DNA from: an uncultured bacterium
GTDB lineage: Bacteria; Verrucomicrobiota; Kiritimatiellia; RFP12; UBA3636
Assembly: GCA_902761575.1 (NCBI GenBank)
Contig: CACWKU010000001.1
Location: 22,435 to 86,434 of the forward strand
DNA length: 64,000 bases
Reading direction: 5' to 3'
In this document: positions 2,977-59,790 of the stretch, piece after piece
How positions within the stretch are numbered: the stretch's first letter is position 1
How the letters are laid out: each line of letters opens with the position of its first letter
Made by a program: the position numbers and the translations under genes
Notes under the pieces: generated by a model
The model's database searches: none
Told to the model about the DNA's origin: nothing
Seen by the model: only the letters and a program-made list of their open reading frames with translations

Positions 2977-3066
2977 GTGAACCTCGTGTTTGGATGAGCT
3001 GTTGTTTTCCTTGCGTAGTGCCGGTCCGGGCTCCGAGATGGCGGAGGTGCCGTTCGACAAGGCGGA

Positions 3067-14532: not shown

Positions 14533-16236
14533 ATGAGCACGATGAAACCCTTCGATCCCGCCGTCGCGGAGCGCCAGCCGGTCTGGCCCGCCGGAGAGAT
14601 GCCCGACCGCCAGCCCCACCAGATCGCCGCGATGACCGACGAGGCGGAAGCCCCCGGCTTCGACCCCGCCGCGCACACGGAGCCCTTCCTCGACTGGTAT
14701 CCGCCGCCCGCGAACCCCATCGGAGCCTGCGCGATCCTCGTCTCCGGCGGCGCCTACCAGAACTGCTGCGACGTGGGCCTGATCAAGGAGTGGCGCGAGC
14801 GCTTCGAGGCGCTCGGCTGCCAGTGCGTGAACTTCGTCTACCGCACGCCGTGGGCGCGCGGGATGGCGATCTACAAGACCGCGTGGGAGGACGCCCGCCG
14901 CGCCGTCCGCCTCGTGCGCTCGCAGGCCGCCGCGCGCGGCTTCGACCCGGAGCGCATCGTCACGGTCTCGATGTCCGCCGGCTCGCACCTCTCGCTGCTC
15001 CTCGCGACGGCGTCGCAGACGAAGGTCTACGAGCCCGTCGACGCGCTCGACGAGATTCCCTGCCACGTGAACGCCGCCGTCGCCTTCGCGCCGGCCGGGA
15101 TGCTCTCCGACGGCCCGATGTGCCCGAACGAGCGCGACGGCGACGGCCTCGACATCGAGCTCGACCCCGCCTTCGCGTTCGACGCGAAGACGCCGCCGGT
15201 CTTCCTCTCGCACGGCGGCGCCGACGCGTACTCGACGTTCAACTCGACGCGCATCTACCGCCGCCTGCGCGCGGCGGGCGTCCCGGCCGAGCTGCACATC
15301 CATCCCGACAAGCCGCACGGCATGTTCGGCCTCGAGCGCGGCGTCGAGTTCCTGCGCCAGATCGGCTTCCTCGGCCCGCTCGGGCCCGAGGTGCCGATCC
15401 TCGAGCGGTTCGCGTCCGACGACGCGCGCGACGGCGCCGCGGAGGCCGCGCCGATCTGGCCGGAGGGGCGCATGCCCCACCCGCAGGCGGACCAGTGCGA
15501 GCCGATCCTCGAGTGGCACCTCCCGAAGAAGCGCACGACCGACGCCATCCAGATCGTCTGGAGCGGCGGCGCCTACCTCGGCAACGACCCGGACGGCTTC
15601 GAGGTCGCGCCCGCGCGGCGCTACCTGAACGGGAAGGGCATGGCCGTCGTCACGGTCCGCTACCGCACGCCGCGCCCCTCCCCTCCCCTCGCCAAGCACG
15701 TCGCGGCGTGGCAGGACGTCCAGCGCGCGGTCCGGCTCGTCCGCGCCGGCGCCGCGGCGCGCGGCCTCGACCCGGACCGCATCGGCGTGATGGGCAGCTC
15801 CGCCGGCGGGCACCTGGCGCTGCTGGCCGCGACCGGCTCGCGCCACCGCACCTACCTTCCGGTCGACGAGACCGACGCCCTACCCTGCACCGTGCAGTGG
15901 TGCGTTGCGATCTACCCGGCCTACACGATCGAGGGCACCTACGACAACGGGACACCCGACGGCTCCAACGACCCGGCGCTGCGCCTCGCCCCGGAGCTGC
16001 CGTTCGACCCCGACACGCCGCCGATCCTCTTCGTGCACGGCGACGCGGACGAACACCCCGCCACGGCATCCGTCGCGACGTGGGAGCAGCTGCGCCGCAT
16101 GGGCGTCCAGGGCGCGGTGCACACGCTCGCCAGGCGCGGCCACTGCTTCTACTTCGCCGCCGCCCCCGGCACCGGCTCCTACACCTTCCTCGACCGGGTC
16201 TGGGAGTTCCTGACGGACAAAGGCTTCAACAAGTAG
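14533..16236 (+). CDS. tandem-duplicated alpha/beta-hydrolase (esterase/lipase) protein, two GxSxG domains, no signal peptide
   Basis: Track ORF. Nucleophile elbows SMSAGSH and GSSAGGH. Each half ends with an HGxADxxV/HP motif. Confidence 0.65.
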   Translation: MSTMKPFDPAVAERQPVWPAGEMPDRQPHQIAAMTDEAEAPGFDPAAHTEPFLDWYPPPANPIGACAILVSGGAYQNCCDVGLIKEWRERFEALGCQCVNFVYRTPWARGMAIYKTAWEDARRAVRLVRSQAAARGFDPERIVTVSMSAGSHLSLLLATASQTKVYEPVDALDEIPCHVNAAVAFAPAGMLSDGPMCPNERDGDGLDIELDPAFAFDAKTPPVFLSHGGADAYSTFNSTRIYRRLRAAGVPAELHIHPDKPHGMFGLERGVEFLRQIGFLGPLGPEVPILERFASDDARDGAAEAAPIWPEGRMPHPQADQCEPILEWHLPKKRTTDAIQIVWSGGAYLGNDPDGFEVAPARRYLNGKGMAVVTVRYRTPRPSPPLAKHVAAWQDVQRAVRLVRAGAAARGLDPDRIGVMGSSAGGHLALLAATGSRHRTYLPVDETDALPCTVQWCVAIYPAYTIEGTYDNGTPDGSNDPALRLAPELPFDPDTPPILFVHGDADEHPATASVATWEQLRRMGVQGAVHTLARRGHCFYFAAAPGTGSYTFLDRVWEFLTDKGFNK

Positions 16237-17158
16237 CCCGAAGCGGGAACCCGGCCGACTCGCGCAGGAGCGCGGTGATGCGCGCGGAGACGGCGTCCTC
16301 CGGCGCGCGGAGGCGCAGGACGCGCGCGTTGCCCGCCGGATCGGGCGCGAAGGGCGTGGAGAGGTCCGGCGCCACGCGGACGCGCCCCGGCTCGCCAAGC
16401 CCGTAGCACTCGTTCTCGCCGTGGACCGCGAGGTCGACGGTGACCGGGTCCCAGCTCGGGCGCGTCATCCCGGGGCCGCAGTAGCGCCGGAACGCCTCGG
16501 CGAGCGGATGCGCGGCGCAGTCCGGCGGCAGGCCGGAGAGGTCGGTGACCACCTTCTCGCCGCTCTCGAACCCGACGAAGACGATCGGGCCGTCCCACGC
16601 GTCGAGGAAGCGGCGCGTGGCCTCCGGGCGTTCGCGGACGTTGGTCTCCGCGTAGCCCGCGCACCGTCCGAAGCCGCCCGCCATCGCCCAGACGGCGCGC
16701 ACCTTGCGTCGGAAGAGCGCGGGGTCCTCCGCGAGGACCTCGTCGAGCGTGTTGAAGAAGCCGATCGAGATCACGTCGACGGAGCCGTCCGCCGCCTCCG
16801 CGAAGACGCGGCGGTAGAGCTCGCGCGCGGCGCACGACGTGGCGGGGTGCGCACCCCGCCACAATGCCGCGAGCGCGGCGAGATACGGGGACTCGTTGCC
16901 GCTCGGCGGAGGCGGGTCGTCCGTGACGCCGACGGGGACGTCCTGCAGGCCCCACGCGGCGAGGACCGCCTTCACCGCGGGCGCGGCGAGCGGCGTCTCG
17001 ACGTTGCACGAGACGCCGCCGATGCGGAACGCGCCGGCGTGGCGGCGCGACTCGGCGCAAAGCAGCGCGAGCGCGGCGACGTCGTCGACGTCGCCGCAGA
17101 AGTCCGTCTCGAGAACGACGGTCGCGCCCGTGCGGGCGGCGAGGGGCTCGGGCGTCAT
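16226..17158 (-). CDS. nucleoside hydrolase (inosine/uridine-preferring family)
   Basis: Start MTPEPLAARTGATVVLETDFCGDVDDVAALALL carries the DxDxxxDD aspartate cluster. ATGA overlap with the upstream CDS stop at 17155-17158. Confidence 0.7.
   Translation of the reverse strand: MTPEPLAARTGATVVLETDFCGDVDDVAALALLCAESRRHAGAFRIGGVSCNVETPLAAPAVKAVLAAWGLQDVPVGVTDDPPPPSGNESPYLAALAALWRGAHPATSCAARELYRRVFAEAADGSVDVISIGFFNTLDEVLAEDPALFRRKVRAVWAMAGGFGRCAGYAETNVRERPEATRRFLDAWDGPIVFVGFESGEKVVTDLSGLPPDCAAHPLAEAFRRYCGPGMTRPSWDPVTVDLAVHGENECYGLGEPGRVRVAPDLSTPFAPDPAGNARVLRLRAPEDAVSARITALLRESAGFPLRATC
16839..16862. repeat. perfect 24-nt palindrome GTGGCGGGGTGCGCACCCCGCCAC inside the nucleoside hydrolase CDS (encodes WRGAHPAT)
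   Basis: Exact palindrome. In-frame translation LWRGAHPATS. Confidence 0.85.
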
Positions 17159-19524
17159 CGCAGAACCAGGATGGTCGGGGGGTCGCCGTAGTGTTCGAAG
17201 CACCCGACGTCGGGGCCGCCGCCGAAGTCGCGTGGCCGCTTGCCGAGGAAGTCGCGCGCGCCGGCCATCCAGTCGCAGAGAACGCCGGCATCCCTCAGCG
17301 GCGACTTCGCGCGGGGAGACCAGTCTCCCTTGTCCGGCTTCGCGAAACGGACGCCCCTTTCGTCGCAGGCCGCCGTGATCCGCGCGGACGCGCCCGACGG
17401 ATCGCGCGCGAGGACCTCCGCGACGGCGTTGGCGCTTCCGCCCTCGACGACCGTGCTCGCGATCCGGACCACGTTGGTCAGGGACGGGCAGTTGTCGACG
17501 GGGGACTCGCACCAGTAGAGGCCGGGCGCGCCCCTGTACTTCCGGCCCCAGGGCCAGCCGTCGGTCTTCGGGAGGTTGTCCCAGAACACGCAGTTGGTGA
17601 TCGCGGGGACCGACGAGTCGTTCTGGAAGTAGACGAGGCCTCCGACGTTGCGGACGAAGGTGCAGTTCGCGAGGGCGGGGAAGCTGCCCAGCTTGAACGG
17701 GCACCGGTTGTCGACGAAGAGCGTGCTGGTGATCTTGGCGACGGACGCGTCCGGCGACCGGAAGAAGGACGGCAGTTGGCTTCCGCTCGACGAGGTGTTG
17801 ATCGTCGTCGCGGTGTCCGAAACCACGCATCGGTCGAGCCGGGCGCGGCCGTAGAAGAGCCCGGCGTTCGAGGAATCGAGCACGTTGCCGGCGATCGTGC
17901 AGGCAACGAGGCGGACGGCTCCGTTCGGGCAGTCGCCGTTGTTGGAGCCGAACGTCATTCCGGCCAGCCCGCCGCCGTCCGAGCGGAGCGTCTGGTTCCG
18001 GAAGACGCAGTTCGTAACGGTCGTGTGGCTCGTCGCGGCGACGGATGTCTGCCCCCGGCTGGCGGTCCGCTCGACGTAGCAGGCGTCGAACGCCGAATTC
18101 TCGATCCAGAGCGAACCGTAGATCGCGCCGCCTGCGTTCCACATATCGGTCCAGGACGTTCCGCACCGGACGAACTCGCATCCGTCGACGATGCCGTATT
18201 CGGACCGCGCGTCGAAGTCCGTGTGCGTTTCGTCGGGGGCGTAGATCGCGCCGCCGAAGCGCGCCGTGCAGTCGACGAAATCGCAGTCGCGGATGGTCGC
18301 CGTGTTGACCGCCGCCGAACCGTCGAGCCGGATCGCGCCGCCCTTGTCCGAGCTGCCGTTCTTGAAGGTGACGCCCCGGACGGTGAAGCCGGACGCGGAC
18401 ACCCGGAGCAGGTTGGCGGACGAATCGCCGTCGAGGATCGTCTTGCCCTTGCCCTCGCGCGAGACGACCGTCAGGTTCGCCGCGGTGACGTCGATCGCCG
18501 ACGTCGCCGTGTAGATGCCGCGGTTCACGACGACCGTCGCGCCGTTGGTCGCGCCCTCGATCTCCGCCTTGAGCCGGGCGAAGTCCCCGACCGTCGCGAA
18601 GATCTCGAAGGAAACGCCCGCCGGCAGAGAGGTCTTGCCCTTGTCGCTTTCGATCGTGACCGTGCAGACGTAGTCGCCGTCGGCGAGGTTCGGGATGGCG
18701 AACTCGGCCGTCTCGCCGGTCTGGTCGCGGAGGACAGTCACCGGATCGCCGCCGTTCAGGCTGTACGAGACGGAATACTTCGTCGCGGGGTTCCCGTCCA
18801 CGTCCGTGCCCATCCCGACGTCCGCGAGCGCGATGGTCGCCGTCCGGCGGAGCGTGGAGGCGGACAGGGAGCCGATCGTCGGATGGGAGCCCGAGATGAT
18901 CTTGCGGACCTGGACCGCGTTGAAGAAGGCGGGTGCGCCCTCGTATTCGAACGTGAACGACTCGGTCCCGTTCTCGGCCGTGAACGTTCCGACGAGGGAG
19001 CCTCCGTACTGGAAGAAATAGCCTTGCGGCCGGGCGGAACACGAATGGTCCGGAGCCCAGACTTCGGTGCCGGCGGCGCCGGTGTTGGAGACGTCCGTGC
19101 AGTGGAGAATCAACTGCACGGCGTAGGTGGCTCCCGGCGTGAGCTTCTTGAGCTGAAGTTCGTGGTCGCCGACGCTCGACCACCATCCGTGCGACAGCAG
19201 GTTGGAGTAGGCGCCCGAAACACCCGGGGGAGGGACGTTCTCGTCCCCGTGCCAATGCCACTCGCCCGAAAAGCCGAAATCGGGGCATCCGGCGACGTCC
19301 TGCCGCCCGACGAACGGAACGCCGTTGACCGCGTTGGTGACGGCGGCGCCGCCGTTCGCCTGGCACCAGGCGTACGCAAGCGTTCCGTTCGTGATGATCG
19401 AATTGCCGGACTGGCTCATCGTGACCTCCTGCCACGTGACGTACGTCGCGGCGCCGGCGACGGGAACGAACAGAGATCCCGAGAGGATGGCGATCAAAAG
19501 TGTCAGAAGGGTCTTGGATTTCAT
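17155..19524 (-). CDS. secreted protein: N-terminal malectin-like domain, Ig-like domain, right-handed parallel beta-helix (pectate-lyase fold) C-terminal region
   Basis: Start MKSKTLLTLLIAILSGSLFVPVAGA at 19522-19524. Motifs ...HGWWSS...AVQLI...FNAVQVRKI, then beta-helix repeats (DGDSSANLLRVSASGFTVRGVTFKNG...). Confidence 0.65.
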   Translation of the reverse strand: MKSKTLLTLLIAILSGSLFVPVAGAATYVTWQEVTMSQSGNSIITNGTLAYAWCQANGGAAVTNAVNGVPFVGRQDVAGCPDFGFSGEWHWHGDENVPPPGVSGAYSNLLSHGWWSSVGDHELQLKKLTPGATYAVQLILHCTDVSNTGAAGTEVWAPDHSCSARPQGYFFQYGGSLVGTFTAENGTESFTFEYEGAPAFFNAVQVRKIISGSHPTIGSLSASTLRRTATIALADVGMGTDVDGNPATKYSVSYSLNGGDPVTVLRDQTGETAEFAIPNLADGDYVCTVTIESDKGKTSLPAGVSFEIFATVGDFARLKAEIEGATNGATVVVNRGIYTATSAIDVTAANLTVVSREGKGKTILDGDSSANLLRVSASGFTVRGVTFKNGSSDKGGAIRLDGSAAVNTATIRDCDFVDCTARFGGAIYAPDETHTDFDARSEYGIVDGCEFVRCGTSWTDMWNAGGAIYGSLWIENSAFDACYVERTASRGQTSVAATSHTTVTNCVFRNQTLRSDGGGLAGMTFGSNNGDCPNGAVRLVACTIAGNVLDSSNAGLFYGRARLDRCVVSDTATTINTSSSGSQLPSFFRSPDASVAKITSTLFVDNRCPFKLGSFPALANCTFVRNVGGLVYFQNDSSVPAITNCVFWDNLPKTDGWPWGRKYRGAPGLYWCESPVDNCPSLTNVVRIASTVVEGGSANAVAEVLARDPSGASARITAACDERGVRFAKPDKGDWSPRAKSPLRDAGVLCDWMAGARDFLGKRPRDFGGGPDVGCFEHYGDPPTILVLR

Positions 19525-27103: not shown

Positions 27104-27144
27104 CTCCCTCGCGTGTCGTGGTGGCACCCCGCCACGCGAGGGAG
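27104..27144 (-). terminator. 12-bp-stem hairpin CTCCCTCGCGTG / CACGCGAGGGAG downstream of the 2097-aa gene stop, followed on the sense strand by TTTT
   Basis: Loop contains a half-copy of the palindrome (GTGGTGGCACCCCGCCAC). Confidence 0.45.
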
Positions 27145-33950: not shown

Positions 33951-34096
33951 GGCGGATCCGCGCCCAGGCGCAACGGAGACGACCATTATTTTACCACGAT
34001 TGCAATATTTTTTTTCTATTGTTGAAATATCTGCCGCGCGTCCAGTTGCTTTCCGAATCAAGGGCGAATCGGACGCGAAGGGCGCGAGGGCGCGTC

Positions 34097-34121
34097 GTGG
34101 CGGGGTGCGACACCCCGCCAC
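34097..34121 (-). terminator. GC-rich palindromic hairpin GTGGCGGGGTGCGaCACCCCGCCAC 8 nt downstream of the GH36-like gene stop
   Basis: Copy of the recurring 24-nt palindrome family. No U-tract. Confidence 0.45.
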
Positions 34122-34128
34122 GGCATCC

Positions 34129-35724
34129 TCAACGAGGCGCGATCTTGACCCAGACGAAGTCGAGCTTGTCGCGGACGGCGACCGTGAGGACGCCGCCTTC
34201 GATCCGCGCTTCGCCGCGACCGCCGATGACGGTCGGCTCCAGGCCGTCCGAGGGCAGGTAGTCGGCGAGGGGCAGGGAGAACTCCTCGCGCGCGTCCAGC
34301 TCGCGGAAGAGAAGCGCCGTTCCCGCCGTTCCGTCGCGGGACGCCGACACGAAGCCCGTCCAGGAGAGGCCGTCCGGCGCGCTCCCGACGGGATGGACGT
34401 AGCCCTCGTGGATCGCGTCGCGCTCCCGCTTCCATCGGGCGATGAGGGGCTTCCACGCCTCGACCGTCTCCCGCGAGAGGTTCTGGATCTCGAACCATCC
34501 GAGCGGCGAGGAGTACATCGCGATCGCGAAGATCGCGTCGCGCGGCCAGCGCAGGGGCGCGAGCGAGTCGCCATCGGGATACAGTTCCGGCTGGCGCTCG
34601 GGGTTCAGGACCTCCATCCGCAGACGCACGGGATCGACGGCGTGCGCGAGGCCCCAGAGGTTCCGCAGCGTGCGGTGCGGCCACCAGAGGCGGCCGTCGC
34701 CCTCGCGGACGTAGCGGTTTTCCACGAAAACGGGGCCGATGCGCGGGAACGCGAAGTAGCCGGGGCGCCGCCCCGCCGTGACGTCGAGGTCGACGGTGAT
34801 GCGGCCGCCCGACCCGTCCATCAGCCGGTCCATCAGCATCCCCTGGCGCGCGAATGCGAGAGGGGTCGGCGTGTCCATCGAGTCGAACTTGAAGTAGTCG
34901 ATGCCGAAAGAGCGGTGGAGGGACAGGAGGAAGTCGGCGTCCCGCCGCCAGTTCGCCGCCTCGTCGGAGGAGTCCGGCCCGAACCACAGCCCGAACTTCA
35001 GGCCCTTCGCGCGCGCCTCCGCGATGAGCGGCGCGAGCCCGCCCGGGAACCGGACGGGGTCGACGTCCCAGAACCCCGCCTCCTCCCACCAGGAGCCCCA
35101 GCGCCCCTTTTCGCCCCTCGCGACGCGGACGGAATTGGCCGTGTAGCCCTTCTCCCAGCCGTCGTCGATCTGGATCACGTCCACGCCGAGCTCGGCCCCC
35201 GCCGCGATCTCGCCCCGCAGGAAGCGCTCGTTGACGCAGGCGTCCTGGTGCCCGTCGCCCCAGGTGTTGGAGAGGAAGAGCCCGTCGCGCCCCGCGACGT
35301 ACGGGCGGAACGACCGGTGGAAGTCCGTGGCCGCGCGGACGCGCCCCGCCCTCCCGCCGCGATAGCCGACGCGGAAGCACCGGTAGGGACTGGAAAGGAT
35401 GCGCAGCATCTGCCGCCCGGGATCCACGTGCCAGTCGGGCGAATCGTCCGCCCGCGCGTGCGGCAGCGGCGCCTGGCGGAAGAAGGCGACGCCCTCCCCG
35501 CCGAGCGAATCCTCGAGGAAGAGCGCCGGTCCGGCAACGTCGAACGGCCTCTCGCAGCGGGAAAGCAGGCGCTCCTTCTCGAAGTAGAGGTCATCGTGCC
35601 GGTCCGTGTCGTCCACCAGCTGGACCTCGACCAGCCGCGGATGCTCCCACGTGTAGCGGAACTCGCCGCCCTCCTCCGCTCCGTACGGAAGCGCACGGAC
35701 CTCGGGCACGACGGAATCGGGCAT
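34129..35724 (-). CDS. alpha-galactosidase-like glycoside hydrolase (clan GH-D, GH36/melibiase-like)
   Basis: Track ORF. Motifs VIQIDDGWEKG and DYFKFDSMD. 14-nt gap to the upstream CDS. Confidence 0.55.
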   Translation of the reverse strand: MPDSVVPEVRALPYGAEEGGEFRYTWEHPRLVEVQLVDDTDRHDDLYFEKERLLSRCERPFDVAGPALFLEDSLGGEGVAFFRQAPLPHARADDSPDWHVDPGRQMLRILSSPYRCFRVGYRGGRAGRVRAATDFHRSFRPYVAGRDGLFLSNTWGDGHQDACVNERFLRGEIAAGAELGVDVIQIDDGWEKGYTANSVRVARGEKGRWGSWWEEAGFWDVDPVRFPGGLAPLIAEARAKGLKFGLWFGPDSSDEAANWRRDADFLLSLHRSFGIDYFKFDSMDTPTPLAFARQGMLMDRLMDGSGGRITVDLDVTAGRRPGYFAFPRIGPVFVENRYVREGDGRLWWPHRTLRNLWGLAHAVDPVRLRMEVLNPERQPELYPDGDSLAPLRWPRDAIFAIAMYSSPLGWFEIQNLSRETVEAWKPLIARWKRERDAIHEGYVHPVGSAPDGLSWTGFVSASRDGTAGTALLFRELDAREEFSLPLADYLPSDGLEPTVIGGRGEARIEGGVLTVAVRDKLDFVWVKIAPR

Positions 35725-36534: not shown

Positions 36535-36549
36535 CGCCCAGCCCTTCGC

Positions 36550-36573
36550 GTGGCGGGGTGCGGACCCCGCCAC
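36550..36573 (-). terminator. palindromic hairpin GTGGCGGGGTGCGgACCCCGCCAC 25 nt downstream of the 36598..39927 stop
   Basis: Same palindrome family with one mismatch. Confidence 0.45.
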
Positions 36574-36597
36574 GGCGGCGAACGCCACAAGGGGCGG

Positions 36598-39500
36598 CTA
36601 CTTGATCCGGTAGACGTGCCGGCTGAAGCCGTCGAAGGCGTCGGAGAAGACGCCGCCCTTCGCCTGGAGGGTGCGGTTCTCGTAGAGGACCTCGACCGTG
36701 GTGTCCTGCGGGACGTCGTCCGGGAGGCGGAACGAGACCCGGGCGTTCGGGTGCGGGTTGACGTTGGCCGTGTAGATGCGGCGCTCGCTCCCGTGCCGGC
36801 GCGTGAGGCAGCGGATGTAGTTCTCGGTCTCGCTCGCGATGGCGCCGCCGCAGAGCTCGTCGGAGCAGAGGAAGTCGACGTTGTCCAGCAGCTCGCGGTT
36901 GATGTCCACGAGCGCGTCGTAGCAGCAGCGCGAGGTGGGCATGTTGACGAACCAGGAGAGGCCCGTCGCGCCGGCGGCGACACAGCCCCAGCACTGCGCG
37001 ACCTGCTCCTTGTAGGTCGGGATCCGCGGATGGAGCGAGTTCTCGCTCTCCATGAAGTACCAGCACGGCTTGCCGGGCGCGATGGAGCGCAGGACGTCGA
37101 CCTTCGAGACGACCATGTCGAGCGTGGTGCCGTCGACGGTCAGGTAGTAGTCGACCATCAGGATGTCGGTCGGGAGCCCCGCGAAGCGCCCGGAGATGCC
37201 GAGCCAGCAGTTGTTCATCTGCACGGGGTTGTAGGGGAAGAGGGCCTTCGTCCGCTTCATGAACGCCTTGCAGTCGTCGGCGTTGCGGTACTCGGGCTCG
37301 TCGAGGACGAGCCAGTTGATCACGTTCGGGCTGTCGAGCATGCCGTACATCTTCCGGCGCGACCAGTCGGTGACGGAGTTGTCCTCCCAGCGCCGGATCT
37401 CGCCCACGTCGTCGAGGGTCTGGCCCTCGCCGGTCCAGATCGTGAACTTCATGCCTTTCTGTGCCGCGTACGCGAGCGTCTTGCGGTTCATCTCGATGTC
37501 GCGGACGTTGAGGTTGTTCTGCAGGTTCAGGTACTTGAACCCGGCGTCGGCGAGGATGTCGACCGGACGCGAGGTGCCGTCGTCCATCGGCCCGTTCTCG
37601 CGGCCGATGAGGCACGGCGAGCTCATGAACACCTTCTCGCCGTCGTGGACGAGCGTGCGGGACCACTGGTTGATCTGCGTCGCGCCCTTCTTGAAGGGCA
37701 GCTTGCGGACCTCGGCCTTCCACTCGCGGCCGAGCGCGCGGACCGTGACGGCGTTGGTGCCGCAGGGCATCCCGGAGATGTCGATCGAGACCTGCTCGAA
37801 GCCGCCCTTGCCGTCCCACGCGCGGAAGTCGGCGGTCCTCTCCTCCATGTAGAAGTCGTAGTGGCCGAGGAGGAGCCCCTCGGGCGGGAGCGGATAGCCG
37901 CAGAGCGCGTTCTCGGCGGGCGTGAGCGGCGCCGTGCGCTCGGGCTTCGCGTGCGGGGTCGGCTTGCCGAGCGCGAAGTTCTCCGCGTCGCCGGACTTCG
38001 GCTTGTACTCCGTCGCGTAGGTCTTCGCGGGGTCGAAGCCGCCGGCCGGCGGGTCGACCATCTCGAGCTGCAGGTCGTCGAGCCAGATCGAGGCCTCGGT
38101 CGTGCGGTCGCGAAGGCCGGGGACGTCGAACCAGACGGGGCTGAAGATGCCGGGCGCGGGCAGGTTGGTCGTCGTGACCTCGTAGCGCGTCCATTCGGTC
38201 GTGAGGTCCACGATCCGGGCGTTGTCGGAGAGCTTCGCCTTGAACTGGACGCCGGGCTCGGACGCCTTCGCCCAGAAGGAGAGGACCGCGCTGCGGCCCT
38301 TCTGCGTGGGCGTGTTCCAGGCGAAGAAGTCGAAGCTGCGGACGAACGGCCCGATGCGCAGCCGGAGCGACTGCTTCCCGGAGTGCCTCTCGGCCGTGTC
38401 GACCATGAAGCACTTGAGGTACTTCTCCTTGTAGTCCTCGATCGAGACCTTCGACATCTCGCAGGAATTGCGGTTGCAGTAGTGCAGCGGCACGCCGTCG
38501 CCGTCGAACTCGAAGCCGGAGTTCGAGATCAGGTTCGGGCTGTCCTCGCCCTTGAGCGCGTAGATCGTGACGCGGCGCACCTCGAAGGGGCACTTGAAGT
38601 TCTCGATGCCGAGCGGGGCCCAGTGCGCGACGCCGTCGAAGCCGACGGTCTTCCTCGGCGTGGGCGCCGTGTAGTAGTTGCCCAGGACGCCGTTGAGGAA
38701 GAAGGCGTAGCCCATCATCGTCTCGCCGATCTTGCGACGCTCGAAGCGGACCGTGACCGGCTCGCCCTCCTTGAAGTTGGCGATCCAGGGGTAGGCGCTG
38801 CGCGTCGGCTGGTCGGCCACCGGCTGGTAGAGGGTCACCCCGTAGCCGTCGCTGCGGACGCCGAACGTGCCGTAGTCGCCGGTCATGACCGCCCAGTGGT
38901 AGTCGCCGTCCTTCGGGTCCTTGATCTCGCTCCACGCGGGGTAGACCGCGATCTCGGCCTCGGCCGCGAACTCGTCCGGCAGCTCGCCCTTCCACTGGAT
39001 GCCGTCGCCGGTGCCGCCGCTCGGGATGCGCACCGCGCCGTCCTTCACCTCGATGTCCTTCTGCGCGTGCCCGCGGAAGCTCCAGCGCTCGGCGAAGACC
39101 TTGGGCTCGGAGAAGTCGTCCTCGAAGATCGGGACCGAGAAGTCGGAGACCGGCCCGCCCGGCGCGCGGGCGGCCCCGGCGGCGTTCGCGGGCTCCTTCT
39201 TCTCGTAGCGCGGCCCCGCCTCGAGCGGCACGTCCGTCGCGCTTGCGTAGAACTTCCCCGTGACCTCCTCGTAGAGGCCGGCGACGCCGCCCTTCACGAC
39301 CGGGACGAAGCGCGCGAGCGGCTTTCCGTCCCGGTAGAACTCCGCCCCGTAGAGCGCGAGGTCGTAGCAGGCGTAGGACTTCACCGACCCGTCGTCGCAG
39401 GTCATCCCGAAGAACGAGACCGGGACCTTGCCGGCCGCGGTGCGCTCGCCCTCGAGCTTCATGTCGAAGCTGCCCCAGGTGACGTGCCGGCCGTCGTAGA

Positions 39501-39927
39501 CGATCGACACGCGGGTTCCGATGGCGGAGTCGTTCACCTCCTGGAGGCCGCAGTGGATCCACTTCTCGCGGCTCTTGCGGCCCAGGCTCGCGAACGTCTG
39601 GTAGGCCTGCGCCTCGTGCCCGCCGAGCGCGAGCTGGAAGAGGTCGCGGAAGCCCTCCGCGTCCTGCGCGTCCTCCTGGCCGAAGAAGACCGTCGTGTTC
39701 TTCGCGTGGTCGAACTTCCCGCCGAAGATCTGGTTGAACGGGCCGTCGAACCGGACGTCCATCCGGAACGTCGTCCCGGGCTGCGGCACGAGGTCGGTCT
39801 TCACGCAGCTGCCGTGCGTGGACTTGACGTATTCGACGCGGTAGTCGAAGTCCGCGGCGGCGGCGGACACGGCGGCGGCGGCGAGGCAGGCCGCGACGGC
39901 GCGGGCGTTTCGTTCGATGGCGTTCAT
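36598..39927 (-). CDS. 1109-aa secreted putative glycoside hydrolase of unrecognised family with CBM4/9-like domain; paralog of 43645..46467
   Basis: Track ORF with a signal peptide. C-terminal ~400 aa shared with 43645..46467 (MPCGTNAVTVRA.GR.W, TIWTGE/ILWTGD, PVQMNN, CW(Y/F)F, YENRTL). Confidence 0.55.
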   Translation of the reverse strand: MNAIERNARAVAACLAAAAVSAAAADFDYRVEYVKSTHGSCVKTDLVPQPGTTFRMDVRFDGPFNQIFGGKFDHAKNTTVFFGQEDAQDAEGFRDLFQLALGGHEAQAYQTFASLGRKSREKWIHCGLQEVNDSAIGTRVSIVYDGRHVTWGSFDMKLEGERTAAGKVPVSFFGMTCDDGSVKSYACYDLALYGAEFYRDGKPLARFVPVVKGGVAGLYEEVTGKFYASATDVPLEAGPRYEKKEPANAAGAARAPGGPVSDFSVPIFEDDFSEPKVFAERWSFRGHAQKDIEVKDGAVRIPSGGTGDGIQWKGELPDEFAAEAEIAVYPAWSEIKDPKDGDYHWAVMTGDYGTFGVRSDGYGVTLYQPVADQPTRSAYPWIANFKEGEPVTVRFERRKIGETMMGYAFFLNGVLGNYYTAPTPRKTVGFDGVAHWAPLGIENFKCPFEVRRVTIYALKGEDSPNLISNSGFEFDGDGVPLHYCNRNSCEMSKVSIEDYKEKYLKCFMVDTAERHSGKQSLRLRIGPFVRSFDFFAWNTPTQKGRSAVLSFWAKASEPGVQFKAKLSDNARIVDLTTEWTRYEVTTTNLPAPGIFSPVWFDVPGLRDRTTEASIWLDDLQLEMVDPPAGGFDPAKTYATEYKPKSGDAENFALGKPTPHAKPERTAPLTPAENALCGYPLPPEGLLLGHYDFYMEERTADFRAWDGKGGFEQVSIDISGMPCGTNAVTVRALGREWKAEVRKLPFKKGATQINQWSRTLVHDGEKVFMSSPCLIGRENGPMDDGTSRPVDILADAGFKYLNLQNNLNVRDIEMNRKTLAYAAQKGMKFTIWTGEGQTLDDVGEIRRWEDNSVTDWSRRKMYGMLDSPNVINWLVLDEPEYRNADDCKAFMKRTKALFPYNPVQMNNCWLGISGRFAGLPTDILMVDYYLTVDGTTLDMVVSKVDVLRSIAPGKPCWYFMESENSLHPRIPTYKEQVAQCWGCVAAGATGLSWFVNMPTSRCCYDALVDINRELLDNVDFLCSDELCGGAIASETENYIRCLTRRHGSERRIYTANVNPHPNARVSFRLPDDVPQDTTVEVLYENRTLQAKGGVFSDAFDGFSRHVYRIK

Positions 39928-39966
39928 GGTCGTTTTCCCCTGGATGGTTCCGGTCGGACTTGCGGG

Positions 39967-41121
39967 CTAGAGCCCGAGCTCCTTCGCCTGCTTGGAGGCG
40001 ACGCGCTCGGATTCGGCGGCGGCCTTCACGCGGTCGATCTGGAGGCCGAAGTCGCCGCTCTCCGCGTGGTCGCGGTCGGCGATCGGCTCGTCGCCGAAGC
40101 TCGTCGCCATGATCGAGAAGATGCGCGCGAAGTTGCCGTCGCAGGAGCTGAAGTGCGTGTCGTTCTCGTTGAGGCGGTTGGTGAGCACCACCTCGACGGC
40201 GTCGAGGCCCGGGTCGATCAGGAGGAAGCACCCCGTGGCGCCGGCGTGGCCGACGGCCTCCATCGTGTTCACCTCGCCGAAGTACTGGCCGAAGCCGACG
40301 TAGCCGGACTTGATGAAGAACGCCGGCGTGCGGTTGAACTCGGGCCTGAGGCAGCGGCGGAAGAGCGCGTCGGCACCCTGCGGCGTGAGGATGCCGGCCT
40401 TGCGCGTGCGGCGGATGTCGAGCAGGTGCCGGCCGAACTTCACGAGGTCCGGCGCGGTGATGTGAAGCCCCGACTGCCCCTGGTGCGCGGCGAAGGCGGA
40501 GTGCTCCATGCCGAGCGGGCGGAAGATGCGGTCGCGCGCGAGGTCGGCGACGTCCGCGGCGCCGGTGACCTTCTCGCAGATCTCGGCGAGGATGTCGTAG
40601 CCCTGCGACATGTAGCGGAACTTCTCGTTCACCTCGAAGTCCTGGTACATCGTGGCGTAGAACTCGTCGTGGCGCTTCTCATCCACGGCCTTCGCGACGT
40701 GCCCGGTGCGGTTGCGCCAGCCCGAGGTGTGCGTCATCAGGTTGATGATCGGCACGTTCTCGCCGGGGAACTCCGGAATGTACTTCCTCACGTAGTCGTT
40801 GAGGGAGAGCTTGCCCTCCTCCGAGAGCTGCATCAGCAGCGTCGCGGTGAAGACCTTGGTGATCGAGGCGACGTGGAGGGGCGTGTTCTCGTCGAACCCC
40901 TCCCAGCCCTTCTGCGCGACGAACCGGTAGCGCGTCTCGCCGTGCTGCTCGTAGACGCAGCTCATGCACTTGAGGGCGCCGCCCTCGAACTCGCTGGCGA
41001 GGAACGCGTCCACGCGGGACTTGGCGTCGGCGCCGTCCGCCGCGAACAGCGATCCGGCGAGCAGGGAGGTCGTTCCGACCGCGATGGCGCGGACGGCGTG
41101 GTTCCGAACGATGCGTTTCAT
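39967..41121 (-). CDS. secreted serine hydrolase, beta-lactamase/transpeptidase fold (esterase-like)
   Basis: Track ORF. SxxK motif ASITKVFTA. Confidence 0.7.
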   Translation of the reverse strand: MKRIVRNHAVRAIAVGTTSLLAGSLFAADGADAKSRVDAFLASEFEGGALKCMSCVYEQHGETRYRFVAQKGWEGFDENTPLHVASITKVFTATLLMQLSEEGKLSLNDYVRKYIPEFPGENVPIINLMTHTSGWRNRTGHVAKAVDEKRHDEFYATMYQDFEVNEKFRYMSQGYDILAEICEKVTGAADVADLARDRIFRPLGMEHSAFAAHQGQSGLHITAPDLVKFGRHLLDIRRTRKAGILTPQGADALFRRCLRPEFNRTPAFFIKSGYVGFGQYFGEVNTMEAVGHAGATGCFLLIDPGLDAVEVVLTNRLNENDTHFSSCDGNFARIFSIMATSFGDEPIADRDHAESGDFGLQIDRVKAAAESERVASKQAKELGL

Positions 41122-41203
41122 GGGAGGGCTCCGGACGATGGGGATGTCGTTCCTTCGGCGCGCCGCCCCCCCCGGGGGACGGCACCCGCGCCGAACGCCG
41201 CCG

Positions 41204-41261
41204 AGTATACCCCACGGACCGCTCGCGAAGAAAGGGCGAAATCGGGCAAAGACGGGTAAAT
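41204..41261 (-). promoter_or_regulatory. promoter of the serine-hydrolase/large-GH operon: -10 TATACT plus upstream ATTTACCCGTCTTTGCCCGATTT element
   Basis: rc AGTATA at 41204-41209. 23-nt element at 41239-41261, almost identical to 36512-36534. Confidence 0.55.
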
Positions 41262-46566: not shown

Positions 46567-47484
46567 TCAGACGACGAACGCCTTCTCCCAGCGGCGCGCG
46601 GTGTGGTCGCGGAAGAAGACGCCGTAGGACGCGCCGCCGTACCACTCGACGACCGCCGAGCGGATCGCGTTGCCGCGGCGGTTCTCGAGCGAGGCGACGT
46701 CGAACTGCGTGACCGCGGAGCCGTCGATCCCGGAGATCTGGCGCAGGCAGTCCTTGCCGCCCCACTGGAAGTCTCCGACGTGGCAGTGGCCGTAGAAGTG
46801 CGCGACGACGTTCTCCGGCAGCGGCAGCAGCGTCCCCATCAGGTCCGAGGCGCGGTTGCCGCCCGGGAAGGCGTAGTGGCTCATCGTGAAGACGGGCTTG
46901 CCGAGCGCGGCGATCGCCGCTCGCGCCCGCTCCGCGGCTCCGGGGTCGGGGTAGTCGATCCGGTTCTCGCCGTCGGTCGCGCCGCCGTGGACGCAGAACC
47001 ACGAGCCGTCCGGCGCGGCGTGGTCGGAGAAGATCGCGAGCGCCAGGTCGCCGAAGTCCGCGACGAGCAGCCAGTCGCGGACGGAGGGCGTCGTGTGCCA
47101 CTGCGTCTCCCGCAGGACGCGCTCCCGCATCGGGATCGTGACGCGCCCGCTTCCGCGGCCGCCGCCCCACCGGTGGTAGTCGAACTCGTGGTTGCCCATC
47201 GCGTACCAGACCGGCGCGTCGACCCGCGCGAGGGCCTCGACCTGCATGTCGGCCATCTCGCGCAGGTGCGCCGGATCGGTCCCCTCGGTCGTGTCGCCGA
47301 GGTAGCACACGGCGTCCACGGGAAGGCGCAGCGAGAGGAAGTCCTCCACGCCCGCGTGCATGCAGCGGCGGGCGTTCGCCGGATCGCGCTGCTGCAGGTC
47401 GGAGATGACCCAGAGGCGCCGGCGCGCGGGACGGAGCAGGCCCGCGCGGAAGTCCGCGGGCGGCGTGGCGGGGTGCGCGCTCAT
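46567..47484 (-). CDS. calcineurin-like metallophosphoesterase
   Basis: Start MSAHPATPP at 47482-47484 with ATGA overlap onto the upstream gene. Motifs GDTTEGTD, GNHEFD, GHCHVG. Confidence 0.65.
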   Translation of the reverse strand: MSAHPATPPADFRAGLLRPARRRLWVISDLQQRDPANARRCMHAGVEDFLSLRLPVDAVCYLGDTTEGTDPAHLREMADMQVEALARVDAPVWYAMGNHEFDYHRWGGGRGSGRVTIPMRERVLRETQWHTTPSVRDWLLVADFGDLALAIFSDHAAPDGSWFCVHGGATDGENRIDYPDPGAAERARAAIAALGKPVFTMSHYAFPGGNRASDLMGTLLPLPENVVAHFYGHCHVGDFQWGGKDCLRQISGIDGSAVTQFDVASLENRRGNAIRSAVVEWYGGASYGVFFRDHTARRWEKAFVV

Positions 47485-48212
47485 TTCGACTTCCTCCGGT
47501 AGAGCGCGGCCGGACGGTGCCCCGCGCCGCCGCGCACGCCGCCCGCCGGCTCGACGAACGGTCGGATCTTGCGGCGGAAGTTCGCGGGGTCGTCGGCCGA
47601 GAGCCCGAACGCCAGGAAGACCTCGCGCAGCTCGGCGAGCGTGAAGGTCCGTGGCACGAACGCGAAGGCCAGGTCGCGCGCGGCGTCCGGCCCGCGCAGC
47701 CGCGCGAGCGCGCCGGCGAGGATCTCGTCGTGGTCGAAGGCGAGCCGGCGCCCCGGCTCCGCGAGCTCGCGCCATTCGGCGGCCGCGGCGTCGTCGCCGC
47801 CGCGCACGCCCTCGGCGCCCGCCGTGACGATGCACAGATACGGGCAGGAGAGGATCCACCCGCGCGGGTCGCGCCCGGGCTTGCTCCGCGGCGCGAGCGG
47901 AACGAGCGCGCTCGCCTCGAGGCCCGTCTCCTCGCGCAGCTCGCGCCGCGCGCACTCCTCCAGCGACTCGCCGGGCTGGAGGAACCCGCCCGGCAGCGCC
48001 CAGCGCCCCTTGAAGGGATGCCCGCCGCGCCTCACGAGCAGGATCGCGGCGCGGCGGCGCTCCGGCGCGCGCCAGTTGCCCGTCGGCTCGCAGCGCAGCG
48101 TGAGCGCGACGATGTCCGCCGCGACCGACGGCCGCGGGTACTTCTCGAGACTGTAGTGGGCGAGGAAGCTCGCCTCGTCGTCCAACGCGGATGGCTTGTC
48201 GTTCTTCTTCAT
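47481..48212 (-). CDS. nrtR: Nudix hydrolase-domain transcriptional regulator, NrtR-like (Nudix box plus C-terminal winged-helix-like tail)
   Basis: Track ORF. Nudix box GGFLQPGESLEECARRELREETGL. C-terminal FTLAELREVFL...NFRRKIRPFV. Confidence 0.55.
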   Translation of the reverse strand: MKKNDKPSALDDEASFLAHYSLEKYPRPSVAADIVALTLRCEPTGNWRAPERRRAAILLVRRGGHPFKGRWALPGGFLQPGESLEECARRELREETGLEASALVPLAPRSKPGRDPRGWILSCPYLCIVTAGAEGVRGGDDAAAAEWRELAEPGRRLAFDHDEILAGALARLRGPDAARDLAFAFVPRTFTLAELREVFLAFGLSADDPANFRRKIRPFVEPAGGVRGGAGHRPAALYRRKSK

Positions 48213-56713: not shown

Positions 56714-57556
56714 ATGACGGACTTAGTTCCCAGACTCTCCTTCTCGACCCTCGGCTGCCCCGGATGGGACGCTTCGCGCATCGTCGAGACCGCCGTCGCC
56801 TCCGGCTACGGCGCCATCGACTTCCGAGGCTATCTCGACGACGTCGAGCTTCCCGAAAGCCCTGCCTTCCGCTCCGGCGCGCTCCGGGAGCTCGCCGCGC
56901 GCGTCCGCGACGCAGGTCTCGCGGTCTCGTGCCTCGGCAGCGGCGCGAAGATGACTGCCCCCGACGCCGCCGCCCGCGCGCGAGAGCTCGACACGATGCG
57001 CCGCTACGCCGACCTGTGCGCACCGCTCGGGTGCCGGCAGGTCCGCATCTTCGGCGGAGCGGCGGAGGAGATCGCGGACCCCGTCCAGAACGCGGCCGAA
57101 ACGCTCGTCGCGGCATCGGAGATCGCGCGGAACGCGGGGATCGAGTTCGCCGTCGAGACCCACGACTCCTGGACCGATACGGGGAAGCTGCGCGCGGCGT
57201 TCGACGCCGCGGGCCGTCCGGACGGCATCACGCTGCTCTGGGACGTCCACCATCCGTGGGCGGCGAAGGGCGAAGCGCCGGAGGTCTCGGCGCGGAATCT
57301 CGCGCCGTTCATCGGCAACACGCACTGGAAGGACTCCCGCCCGATGCCCGGCGGAAAGCGTCGGCTCTGCCTGCCGGGCGAGGGAGACGCGCCCCTGGGC
57401 TCGATCCTCGAAGCGCTCTCCTCCACCGGATACGACGGCTGGCTCACGTTCGAATGGGAGAAGCGCTGGCACCCCGAGATCGAGGAGCCCGAAGTCGCAA
57501 TCCCCGCGTTCGCGCGCTTCATGCGAGGCCTCTTCGCAAAGGCACTCGAGCCGTAG
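56714..57556 (+). CDS. sugar-phosphate isomerase/epimerase, xylose-isomerase-like TIM barrel
   Basis: Start MTDLVPRLSFSTLGCPGW, in frame with the longer track ORF 56405..57556. 22 nt after the AraC stop. Confidence 0.6.
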   Translation: MTDLVPRLSFSTLGCPGWDASRIVETAVASGYGAIDFRGYLDDVELPESPAFRSGALRELAARVRDAGLAVSCLGSGAKMTAPDAAARARELDTMRRYADLCAPLGCRQVRIFGGAAEEIADPVQNAAETLVAASEIARNAGIEFAVETHDSWTDTGKLRAAFDAAGRPDGITLLWDVHHPWAAKGEAPEVSARNLAPFIGNTHWKDSRPMPGGKRRLCLPGEGDAPLGSILEALSSTGYDGWLTFEWEKRWHPEIEEPEVAIPAFARFMRGLFAKALEP

Positions 57557-57573
57557 GGGCGCGCCGGAGTCCG

Positions 57574-59790
57574 TCAGCGAACGTCGATCCGCGCGGAGGC
57601 GCGGAGGGAGGCGGAGAGCTCGAATTCGCCCGCCTCGAAGCGGCGGGTGCCGTCGGGCTGCATCGCGGCGAGATCCTTGCGCGAGAGCGACAGCTTCACC
57701 GTCTTCGTCTCGCCCGGCTTCAGCGAGACCTTCTCGAATCCGACGACGCGCCGCACCGGCTGGGTGCTCGTGCTCTCGAGGTCCGAGAGATACCAGATCA
57801 CGGTCTCCGCGCCGGCGCGCCTGCCGGCGTTCCTCACCGTCACGGACGCCTCGACGCGCCCGCCGCGGCGCACGGCGGCCTTCGCCTTCCCGTATTCGAA
57901 CGTCGTGTAGGAGAGGCCGTAGCCGAACGGCAGCCACGGGTCGTTCTCGTGCGGACAGTCGAGGTAGTCGAAGAGGTTCTCGCGGCTGCGCGGCTGGGCG
58001 TTGTAGAACACCGGGATCTGCCCGACGGCGCGCGGGAAGGTCATCGCGAGGCGGCCGGAGGGGTTCGCGGCGCCGGTGACGAGCTCCCACGCGGCCTGGG
58101 CGGCGCGCGAGCCGCCCTGCCAGAGGTAGAGGATCGCGTCGAGCTTCGCGGCGGTCTCGGAAAACGCGAGCGGACGTCCCGCGGCGACGAGGCCGACGAG
58201 CGGCCGGCCGGTCTCCGCGAGGGCGTCGACGAGCGCCTCCTGCGCGGGCGAGAGGCGGATGTCGCGGCGCGACTTGTATTCGCCCGAGAGCCAGCCCGGC
58301 TCGCCGAGCGCGACGACGACGACGTCCGCGGCGCGCGCGGCGCGGACCGCCTTCGCGATCGCGGCGCGGTCCGGCGGCAGGCCCGGATCGAGGATCGAGC
58401 CCTCGACGAAGTCGACCGTACGCAGCCGCGGCGCGCCCTCGGGCGGCAGCGCGCAGCCCGGCGCGTAGTCGATCCTCGCGTTCGGGAAGAAGCGCGCGGC
58501 CTCGTCCCGGAGCGACGGCGTCTCCTCGTGGTTCTTCGCGCACATCGCCGCCCACGTGCCGACGAGCGCGGGGCAGTCGTCCGCCGCCGGGCCGACGAGC
58601 GCGAGGCGCTTCACCTTCCTCGGATCGAGCGGGAGCAGCCCCCCCTCGTTCTTGAGCAGGACGGCGCAGCCGCGCGCGCACTCGGCCGCGAGGTCGAGGT
58701 CGGCGGGCAGGCGGCAGGTCCTCTCGCGCGGGAGCTCGGGGACGTAGGGATGCTCGAAGAGGCCGCACTCGAACTTGACGCGCAGCACGCGCTCCACGGC
58801 GCGGTCGAGCACGTGCATCGGAAGGCGGCCGGCCTTGACGAGGGCCGGGATGTTGCGGAAGACGTCGTCCGACATGTCCATGTCGTTGCCGGCCGTGAGC
58901 GCGGCGAGCGTCTGGACGGCCGGGTCGGAGCTGTAATGCTGGATGCGCAGCTGCGAGACGGCGCCCCAGTCGGAGACGACGAAGCCGTCGAAGCCCCATT
59001 CGCCGCGGAGGATGTCCGTCAGCGTCTCCCGGTTCGCGACGGCGGGCGTGCCGTCGATGCAGTTGAAGGAGCTCATGAGCGTCCGCGCGCCGGCGCGCAC
59101 GCCCGCCTCGAACGGCGGCAGATACCACTCGCGCAGCGCCCGCGCCGAGATCTCCGTGTAGGAGTAGTCGCGCCCGCCCTCGCTCGCGCTGTAGCCGACG
59201 AAGTGCTTGAGGCAGGCGACGACGCGGCCCGGCTTCCGCAGGTCCGCGCGGCGGCGCCCCTGGTAGCCGCGGACGGCGGCCGCGGCGAAGACGCCGTTCG
59301 TGAACGGGTCCTCGCCGTAGCCCTCGACGTTGCGGCCCCAGCGCGGATCGTGCCCGACCTCGACCATCGGGGAGAAGGTCCAGTCGACGCCGCCGTCCGT
59401 CCAGCACTCGCGCGCCGCGACTCGGCACGCCCTCTCCGTGAGCGACGGGTCGAACGAGCAGGACTGCGCGAGCGGGACGGGGAAGCCCGTGCGCCAGCCG
59501 TGGATGACGTCGTAGCCCCAGAGGATCGGGATGCCGAGGCGCGTCCCCTCGACGGCCATGCGCTGGAACGCGTTGCGCGCGGCGGCGCCGCCGGTGAAGG
59601 AGAGGACGGAGCCGATCGTCGGGTCGAACGGATGGTCGGGCCCGACGTTGTTCGGATTGGTGTCGCGGCCGATCGGGTTCTGGATCAGCTGCGCGGCCTT
59701 CTCCTCGAGCGTCATGCGGCGGAGCAGGTCGCGCACGCGCGCCTCGGCGGGCTTCTTCGGATCCTTGTACGGGGGGAGTTTCGTTTTCAT
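57574..59790 (-). CDS. beta-glucosidase, GH3 (BglX-like), no signal peptide
   Basis: Start MKTKLPPYKDPKKPAEARVRDLLRRMTLEEKAAQL at 59788-59790. Nucleophile context GFDGFVVSDW. Confidence 0.8.
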   Translation of the reverse strand: MKTKLPPYKDPKKPAEARVRDLLRRMTLEEKAAQLIQNPIGRDTNPNNVGPDHPFDPTIGSVLSFTGGAAARNAFQRMAVEGTRLGIPILWGYDVIHGWRTGFPVPLAQSCSFDPSLTERACRVAARECWTDGGVDWTFSPMVEVGHDPRWGRNVEGYGEDPFTNGVFAAAAVRGYQGRRRADLRKPGRVVACLKHFVGYSASEGGRDYSYTEISARALREWYLPPFEAGVRAGARTLMSSFNCIDGTPAVANRETLTDILRGEWGFDGFVVSDWGAVSQLRIQHYSSDPAVQTLAALTAGNDMDMSDDVFRNIPALVKAGRLPMHVLDRAVERVLRVKFECGLFEHPYVPELPRERTCRLPADLDLAAECARGCAVLLKNEGGLLPLDPRKVKRLALVGPAADDCPALVGTWAAMCAKNHEETPSLRDEAARFFPNARIDYAPGCALPPEGAPRLRTVDFVEGSILDPGLPPDRAAIAKAVRAARAADVVVVALGEPGWLSGEYKSRRDIRLSPAQEALVDALAETGRPLVGLVAAGRPLAFSETAAKLDAILYLWQGGSRAAQAAWELVTGAANPSGRLAMTFPRAVGQIPVFYNAQPRSRENLFDYLDCPHENDPWLPFGYGLSYTTFEYGKAKAAVRRGGRVEASVTVRNAGRRAGAETVIWYLSDLESTSTQPVRRVVGFEKVSLKPGETKTVKLSLSRKDLAAMQPDGTRRFEAGEFELSASLRASARIDVR

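Follow-up and report, generated by a model that had tools for sequence, protein, structure and literature searches.

A 24-nucleotide palindrome that lies within two unrelated genes of the 64-kb stretch of DNA that we analysed (the window) is probably a copy of a REP-type hairpin repeat that is specific to a lineage of high-GC gut and rumen PVC bacteria. Within the genes, it is probably an ancestral replacement of the same length that has been carried along vertically as a passenger. The lineage that carries the repeat consists of MAGs labelled Verrucomicrobia, Kiritimatiellae or Lentisphaerales. We will describe the copies in the window, the repeat family, and then how the copies within genes may have arisen.

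The window has a GC content of 69% and is a chromosomal region that is rich in genes for carbohydrate-active enzymes. It contains no genes for a transposase, RAYT, dnaA, parAB or gid, no canonical parS site, and no tRNAs or Rfam families. Of the 26 genes called between positions 1 and 54626, 24 lie on the minus strand, a pattern that suggests a single long co-directional (leading-strand) block. The copies of the repeat in the window are as follows.

16839..16862, no strand assigned: full copy in the nucleoside-hydrolase gene; a perfect 24-bp palindrome, GTGGCGGGGTGCGCACCCCGCCAC, with a 10-bp stem and the loop GCGC
60073..60096, no strand assigned: one-mismatch copy in the membrane-protein gene; position 2 is C for T (outer pair, GCGG...), with the loop GCGC
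36549..36574 (24-nt core 36550-36573), no strand assigned: intergenic full copy, C-GTGGCGGGGT-GCGG-ACCCCGCCAC-G
34096..34122 (core 34097-34121), no strand assigned: intergenic full copy with a 5-nt loop, C-GTGGCGGGGT-GCGAC-ACCCCGCCAC-G
27113..27135, no strand assigned: degenerate copy, GTGtCGtGGT-ggc-ACCCCGCCAC
47465..47480, minus strand: half-copy (loop and right arm), GCGCACCCCGCCAC on the minus strand

The perfect palindrome lies within a nucleoside-hydrolase-like coding sequence (16226..17158, minus strand), whose protein matches the Pfam family IU_nuc_hydro. It is read W-R-G-A-H-P-A-T and yields the peptide LWRGAHPATS. The one-mismatch copy is read W-R-G-A-H-P-A-A, within the peptide AWRGAHPAAL, in a minus-strand coding sequence (59787..61496) for a membrane protein of 569 amino acids that has an N-terminal hydrophobic segment and no match in Pfam or NCBIfam. 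On either side of both genic copies, GC3 in the claimed frame is about 0.95. The half-copy includes GCGCACCCCGCCACG (47465-47476), which forms codons 3-7 of a metallophosphoesterase (46567..47484, minus strand; the protein starts MSAHPAT), and as a whole (47465..47480) it starts where the overlapping stop codon of the NUDIX/NrtR-like gene upstream (47481..48212, minus strand) ends. The preliminary description of this DNA had reported both genic copies, with these peptides, and the half-copy. We confirmed both genic copies in sequence and in frame, and the half-copy is real. That account was correct but somewhat understated, as it missed the full copies at 36550-36573 and 34097-34121 and the degenerate copy at 27113-27135.

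These additional copies follow genes. Measured from the stop codon, the core at 36550-36573 lies 24 nt past a gene that encodes 1109 amino acids (36598..39927, minus strand); the copy with the 5-nt loop lies 7 nt past the gene at 34129..35724 (minus strand); and the degenerate copy lies about 38 nt past a minus-strand gene whose coordinates begin at 27174. The degenerate copy is itself followed by a hairpin and T-tract of the canonical-terminator type (27113-27094, minus strand).

A search of the window that allowed up to three mismatches returned exactly three sites, each with at most one mismatch, against an expectation of 0.00 from shuffled sequences. The 5-nt-loop copy, the degenerate copy and the half-copy were revealed by a search of the window for half-sites, which gave 15 matches versus 0.92 expected; this enrichment is partly real (47465 and 27124), but the shuffles ignore codon structure, and DPAT/HPAT coding sites at 16053, 60280 and 61444 may be ordinary coding sequence. 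The tally is four full copies and one degenerate copy in 64 kb, or about one copy per 15-25 kb here. With their context, copies have predicted RNA folding energies of -27.8, -29.4 and -32.4 kcal/mol. When we aligned the copies, their flanks were unrelated, and conservation was confined to 24-26 nt.

The palindrome also affects gene prediction: the program that listed open reading frames took the GTG at its edge as a start codon and produced spurious long ORFs at 16839..17378 (plus strand), 36550..41259 (plus strand) and 56723..60088 (minus strand).

The repeat recurs in related genomes. A scan for the 20-nt core in one genome per GTDB species gave 35 loci. Among these genomes, the exact core with constant GT..AC flanks was found only in PVC MAGs (6, 4, 1, 1, 1 and 1 copies), and the highest counts of the exact core with the GCGC loop were in CAMVRE01 (6 copies) and CAMNDA01 (4 copies), which are both fragmented MAGs. 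MAGs labelled Verrucomicrobia or Lentisphaerales, along with rumen MAGs, contain the full GT...AC unit repeatedly. (One homolog of the membrane protein was labelled Kiritimatiellae by its source.) Actinomycete matches to the core in the GTDB scan were singletons with unrelated flanks.

We also scanned metagenomes for the stem with any loop of 3-6 nt. This identified at least 120 stretches, nearly all of them rumen or gut contigs with a GC content of 0.62-0.77. Among the matches listed, the loop is free, with dozens of sequences on one stem (GCGC, GCGG, CCGC, CTCC, GCGAC and so on), and the stem is flanked by C...G in 82% of copies. The family unit can be written as C-GTGGCGGGGT-(free loop, mostly 4-5 nt)-ACCCCGCCAC-G; it spans 24-26 nt and has a stem of 10-11 bp. 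Flank complementarity at offsets 2-4 is only slightly above expectation, and the unit does not extend past 26 nt. Because the stem is invariant and the loop is free and variable in length, the relevant form of the repeat should be a single-strand hairpin, either RNA or ssDNA, as opposed to a duplex operator. Copies of the PVC type are nearly all singletons that lie kilobases apart, and we did not find regular pairs or alternating clusters of the REPIN/BIME type among them.

A distinct subfamily, with the consensus ...cccgtt-GTGGCGGGGT-CTCC(C/G)G-ACCCCGCCAC-gg... and hence a 6-nt loop, was seen in six of the fetched loci (L086, L087, L100, L141, L154 and L113; GC around 0.61, for example Ga0070738). 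It forms irregular arrays of 2-4 copies with a spacing of 52-157 nt, and neighbouring variants show compensatory changes in the stem (GTGGCccGGT...ACCggGCCAC). This subfamily looks like a BIME-like cluster of a different organism.

The stem was present in only three viral contigs, and we rejected a phage origin. A 17-kb contig that is classed as viral (L162, or IMGVR_UViG_3300031994_003983; 71% GC) has one copy of the stem at 5447-5470, in a context that resembles that of another locus (L109). This contig could be prophage DNA or a piece of chromosome that was classified wrongly.

To place copies relative to genes, we called the genes around them with a GC3-based gene caller, which reproduced the gene map of the window. 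There were 112 unique high-GC copies among the matches listed. Of these, 45 are downstream of a strictly verified stop codon, at a median distance of 15 nt (range 4-73), 13 (about 12%) are strictly intragenic, and the others fall in neither class under our strict criteria. Thus, the copies are mostly extragenic and near the 3' ends of ORFs, which is the position expected of REPs.

The hairpins past stop codons are not followed by a U-tract: in the mRNA sense, the next 30 nt are 4-25% T, with no T run. A terminator scan did not call these sites, and relative to the upstream gene the loop is not biased towards either strand (G 73 versus C 83). Because there is neither a U-tract nor a strand bias in the loop, the hairpin is not a canonical intrinsic (Rho-independent) terminator, and we rejected this assignment. 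A broader version of the idea is that ordinary factor-independent terminators or 3' stabiliser hairpins converged on one stable GC-rich stem, with no common descent or copying. This would fit the very stable hairpin, its location directly past stop codons, and the occurrence of the same 20-mer as isolated terminator-like hairpins in many actinomycetes. But selection on structure only would permit compensatory changes in the stem, and instead the 10-bp stem and its C/G flank are identical at hundreds of sites in PVC contigs. The hairpin also has no U-tract behind it, and the intragenic copies would terminate their own genes. We consider convergence to be improbable.

In E. coli, REP/BIME sequences at the 3' ends of mRNAs stabilise them against 3'-5' exonucleases, and those that lie no more than about 15 nt from the stop codon have effects on translation. 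If the hairpins described here are transcribed from their usual site, 4-25 nt past the stop codon, then each transcript would contain a hairpin with a folding energy of about -28 to -32 kcal/mol. As in the E. coli REP/BIME, this is a stable hairpin a few nucleotides past stop codons, which suggests a similar role at the level of RNA: the post-stop hairpin may protect or define the 3' end of the mRNA.

We now turn to the copies within genes. The preliminary description viewed them as a MITE or REP-like palindromic element that had inserted into coding regions and was tolerated there, with WRGAHPA as part of an insertion of 8 residues. The view that this is a dispersed repeat of the REP type that is tolerated in genes stands up, as there are intergenic copies with the same 20-nt stem and the family is present in related genomes. 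The other parts, that it is a MITE and that it added residues, do not. Alignments of 81 homologs of the nucleoside hydrolase and 36 of the membrane protein are free of gaps at the motif.

Furthermore, homologs that lack the palindrome have equivalent residues at this position, an outcome that the preliminary description had itself given as a refutation. Two palindrome-free nucleoside hydrolases encode W-R-G-x-D/E-P: L168 (68% identity, from a genome with 76% GC) has TGG CGC GGC CCG GAG CCG CCG, and L040 (52% identity) has TGG CGC GGA GCC GAT CCC GGC. More broadly, homologs of the nucleoside hydrolase down to 52% identity read ARWRGADPxx, and at 47-50% identity the site has unrelated residues in a segment of the same length. 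Because palindrome-free homologs encode W-R-G-x-D/E-P with ordinary codons, this motif is ancestral. Homologs of the membrane protein with at least 72% identity read AAWRGAHPAA, while a 60% identical homolog reads EAARRDHPDAF and one that is 43% identical reads AEWARDTPDAAL; outgroups have segments of the same length, such as A-R-R-D-H-P-D-A and W-A-R-D-T-P-D-A. Thus, the genic copies in both genes of the window did not arise by the addition of 8 residues.

Nucleoside hydrolases of the hairpin clade have the codons TGG CGG GGT xCG xAC CCC GCC, with GCGC, CCGC or GCGG as the loop, and the variation in the loop alters the two central residues. A few substitutions set them apart from the hairpin-free nucleoside hydrolases, among them a switch to the rare codon GGT, which pairs with the A of the H/D codon. 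A rare GGT codon in a setting of about 95% GC3 points to a cause at the level of DNA. The site in the outgroups already matches the stem at 15 of 24 positions. The codons of the membrane-protein homologs lead to the same conclusion.

Could in-frame transposition of a mobile palindromic element (MITE or REP-like) into both genes nevertheless have contributed the 8-residue segment with WRGAHPA? The same 24 nt are found in unrelated genes and in intergenic DNA; in-frame insertion of palindromic elements has precedents in Rickettsia RPEs and in REPs (PMC3733652); and the nucleoside hydrolase of one related locus (L171) does contain a true in-frame insertion of 93 nt, in the loop of the hairpin. 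On the other hand, there is no gap at the motif in either protein family, the palindrome-free homologs have W-R-G-x-D/E-P or segments of the same length in the same columns, and the element is only 24-26 nt, without longer flanks or MITE-style ends. Transposition into these genes is therefore a distinctly improbable explanation. We specifically rejected a MITE, which would be 70-300 bp with terminal inverted repeats and a target-site duplication, as the unit is 24-26 nt, its flanks are unrelated, and the length of the host is unchanged. We also rejected an in-frame insertion of the Rickettsia type (RPE), as there are no extra residues relative to the hairpin-free homologs.

The insertion in L171 (3278-3388, in homolog P0023 of the nucleoside hydrolase) is of interest in its own right. 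The arms of the hairpin are split by an in-frame insert of lower GC content that adds 29-31 residues, so that the protein reads WRGA-EGGRFVEASLPCMTTADVSSGRGVPTALP-HPAT. The insert has an internal hairpin of its own and imperfect inverted ends. It is a genuine insertion into a REP loop within a gene, and it recalls the IS elements that target REP loops. Among the fetched loci, we found no other copies of the insert except for a weak 28-nt match in L129.

The genic copies have been inherited for some time. They occupy orthologous positions in contigs that encode proteins of 71-90% identity, and orthologous copies are present in L005, L009, L038 and L169. The intergenic copy after the 1109-amino-acid gene is conserved as well: in L036, it is at position 5919, again 24 nt past the homologous gene. 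In some lineages the genic copies have decayed. The nucleoside hydrolase of L036 has four mismatches to the hairpin and the peptide SRRGADPAT, and in the membrane protein of L166, GGTGCG has become AACGAC. The 8 codons of the hairpin show no better conservation than 33-46% of other 8-codon windows, and they rank with the least conserved in two lineages. Since conservation is not above that of other 8-codon windows, we dropped the idea that the hairpin has a function, or is under purifying selection, inside genes. From the orthologous genic copies, their decay, and the ordinary conservation of their codons, we conclude that the acquisition was ancient and the inheritance vertical, and we see nothing that indicates selection for the hairpin within genes.

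The loss of the hairpin in L166 (1704-1727, homolog P0084) involved the replacement of five of six adjacent bases, which changed G-A to N-D, and both flanks are identical. This looks like an event that altered a patch of several nucleotides and not like independent point mutations.

Another idea is that the palindrome is a site in duplex DNA for a dimeric protein, such as a dyad of the parS, matS or operator kind, that is selected both in and outside of genes. The dyad is perfectly symmetric, its sequence does not differ between species or at orthologous positions, and such sites can evolve within genes without changing the length of the protein. However, the arms are invariant while the spacer is 3-6 nt of any sequence, which does not fit the fixed footprint of a dimer. 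Also, copies are placed tightly at 4-25 nt past stop codons, they are abundant (at least 120 metagenome stretches, and about one per 15-25 kb in the window), the window lacks a canonical parS, parAB and dnaA, and the hairpin decays in some lineages while the gene stays. A dyad of this kind is very improbable. We likewise rejected a parS or other binding site close to the replication origin, as the window has no canonical parS and none of the genes dnaA, parAB and gid, and is instead rich in CAZymes. Finally, it is almost inconceivable that a shared WRGAHPA peptide and extreme GC codon bias gave the same DNA twice by coincidence: the ancestral W-R-G-x-D-P of nucleoside hydrolases does have high-GC codons that are near-palindromic, but the stem is shared by intergenic copies and by six unrelated host proteins, it requires the rare GGT where non-hairpin homologs use GGC or GGA, and shuffles give an expectation of 0.00.

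The six host proteins are those with a 4-nt loop that were verified by Pfam or by orthology: the nucleoside hydrolase (in the window and in L005, L038 and L169), the membrane protein (in the window and in L009), a MurF-type ligase (L017), a GT9 heptosyltransferase (L027), the nickel-insertion protein LarC (L066), and an RluA-type pseudouridine synthase (L140). One repeat is thus translated in six unrelated proteins, and in all six of them (6/6) the frame is W-R-G-x-x-P-A (p ~ 0.004 if the three frames are equally likely). With a 5-nt loop, the reading frame necessarily shifts across the loop; for example, genic copies of this kind in one unannotated protein family are read V-A-G-x-x-T-P-P-R.

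In our preferred account, the two genic copies in the window would have arisen in an ancestor by replacing or re-sculpting codons without a change in length. The recipient site would already have encoded W-R-G-x-(D/E/H)-P-A and so matched much of the stem, and the source of the replacement may have been short-patch conversion from another copy. The genic copies would then have been inherited vertically as tolerated passengers, with decay in some lineages. As for the mechanism, entry into coding sequence by homology-guided short-patch gene conversion, and not by transposition, is a tentative and on balance rather unlikely suggestion. Patch conversion at stem-like W-R-G...P-A sites would explain the constant length, the single frame in six hosts, and the rare GGT.

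We also searched for a transposase that might be associated with the repeat. The window has no Y1 transposase, and we did not find a RAYT flanked by inverted REPs. The locus L038 contains a gene (2024-3010) for a 328-amino-acid protein that resembles Y1_Tnp or REP-associated tyrosine transposases, with HUH and YxxLNP motifs; it scores 51 bits, versus the NCBIfam cut-off of 80. This gene is 7 kb from a nucleoside-hydrolase gene that bears the hairpin, and the next gene abuts it without a gap. Its flanks, including the upstream intergenic region, do not contain the hairpin. A tblastn search with the L038 protein found no homolog near any of the roughly 150 fetched copies of the hairpin. As the gene is not flanked by the hairpin, we rejected a link between the two.

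How does this family compare to known systems? A REP has been defined as a palindrome that has a non-complementary middle and is preceded by a GT(A/G)G head, and RAYT genes are defined as being flanked by REPs (Nunvar et al. 2010, PMC2817692). GTAG-tagged REPs have been described from Proteobacteria, Cyanobacteria, Chloroflexi and the PVC superphylum; most of them follow an ORF, no more than about 20 bp from its 3' end (Di Nocera et al. 2013, PMC3733652). Intragenic REPs reach their highest number in a PVC bacterium, Opitutus terrae, where the head is GTGG in most GTAG-20 units and the same REP-encoded peptide, VGPALAAG, recurs in unrelated ORFs (PMC3733652).

The hairpin family has the structure and the positions of REPs and belongs to this known type. 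The unit is a short GC-rich stem-loop (24-26 nt, -28 to -32 kcal/mol), and it starts with GTGG. This head was demanded by the pattern used in the metagenome scan, and independent support for it comes from the constant GT..AC flanks in PVC MAGs and the C before the head. Like the GT(A/G)G REPs of O. terrae, our family is a short, GC-rich, GT(A/G)G-headed stem-loop with many dispersed copies, mostly near the 3' ends of ORFs, and a minority of intragenic copies gives the same short peptide in unrelated proteins. The stem itself probably differs from those of O. terrae REPs; GTGGCGGGG does not occur in the supplementary files of PMC3733652 that we searched.

There are also differences from classical REPs, in which the GTAG head is unpaired and at one end: here GTGG pairs with CCAC, so that the unit is fully symmetric and there is a head on both strands. 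Many REP families form inverted pairs (REPINs or BIMEs), whereas the copies described here are mostly singletons, and in contrast to GT(A/G)G REPs with a flanked RAYT, none was found for this hairpin in the window or in the fetched loci. Unlike intragenic REPs as they are usually described, the genic copies in the window added no residues. The family also resembles the Rickettsia palindromic elements (RPE), in that a palindromic repeat lies in frame within functional genes, is tolerated, and encodes a recurrent peptide. RPEs, which were reportedly described by Ogata et al. in 2000 and are summarised in PMC3733652, are around 100-150 bp long and are clear insertions that add tens of residues. 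In contrast, our unit is 24-26 nt, there is no net change in length, and W-R-G..P was already ancestral at the site. Replacement with the same length and in a single frame at W-R-G..P-A sites is not stated in PMC3733652 or PMC2817692.

These results call for caution in annotation. In a high-GC genome, the GTG in the palindrome creates spurious long ORFs (such as those with starts at 16839 and 36550), and identical peptides in unrelated proteins need not imply a shared domain.

In summary, our analysis contributes a REP-type hairpin family that had not been described and that belongs to uncultured gut and rumen PVC bacteria of high GC content. The same-length replacements, in one frame and at pre-adapted sites, question the wording that REPs "interrupt" or "insert into" ORFs. 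If patch conversion is the correct explanation, then REPs would spread without transposition and would write one peptide into unrelated proteins. The hairpin family is a tractable case for how REPs spread.
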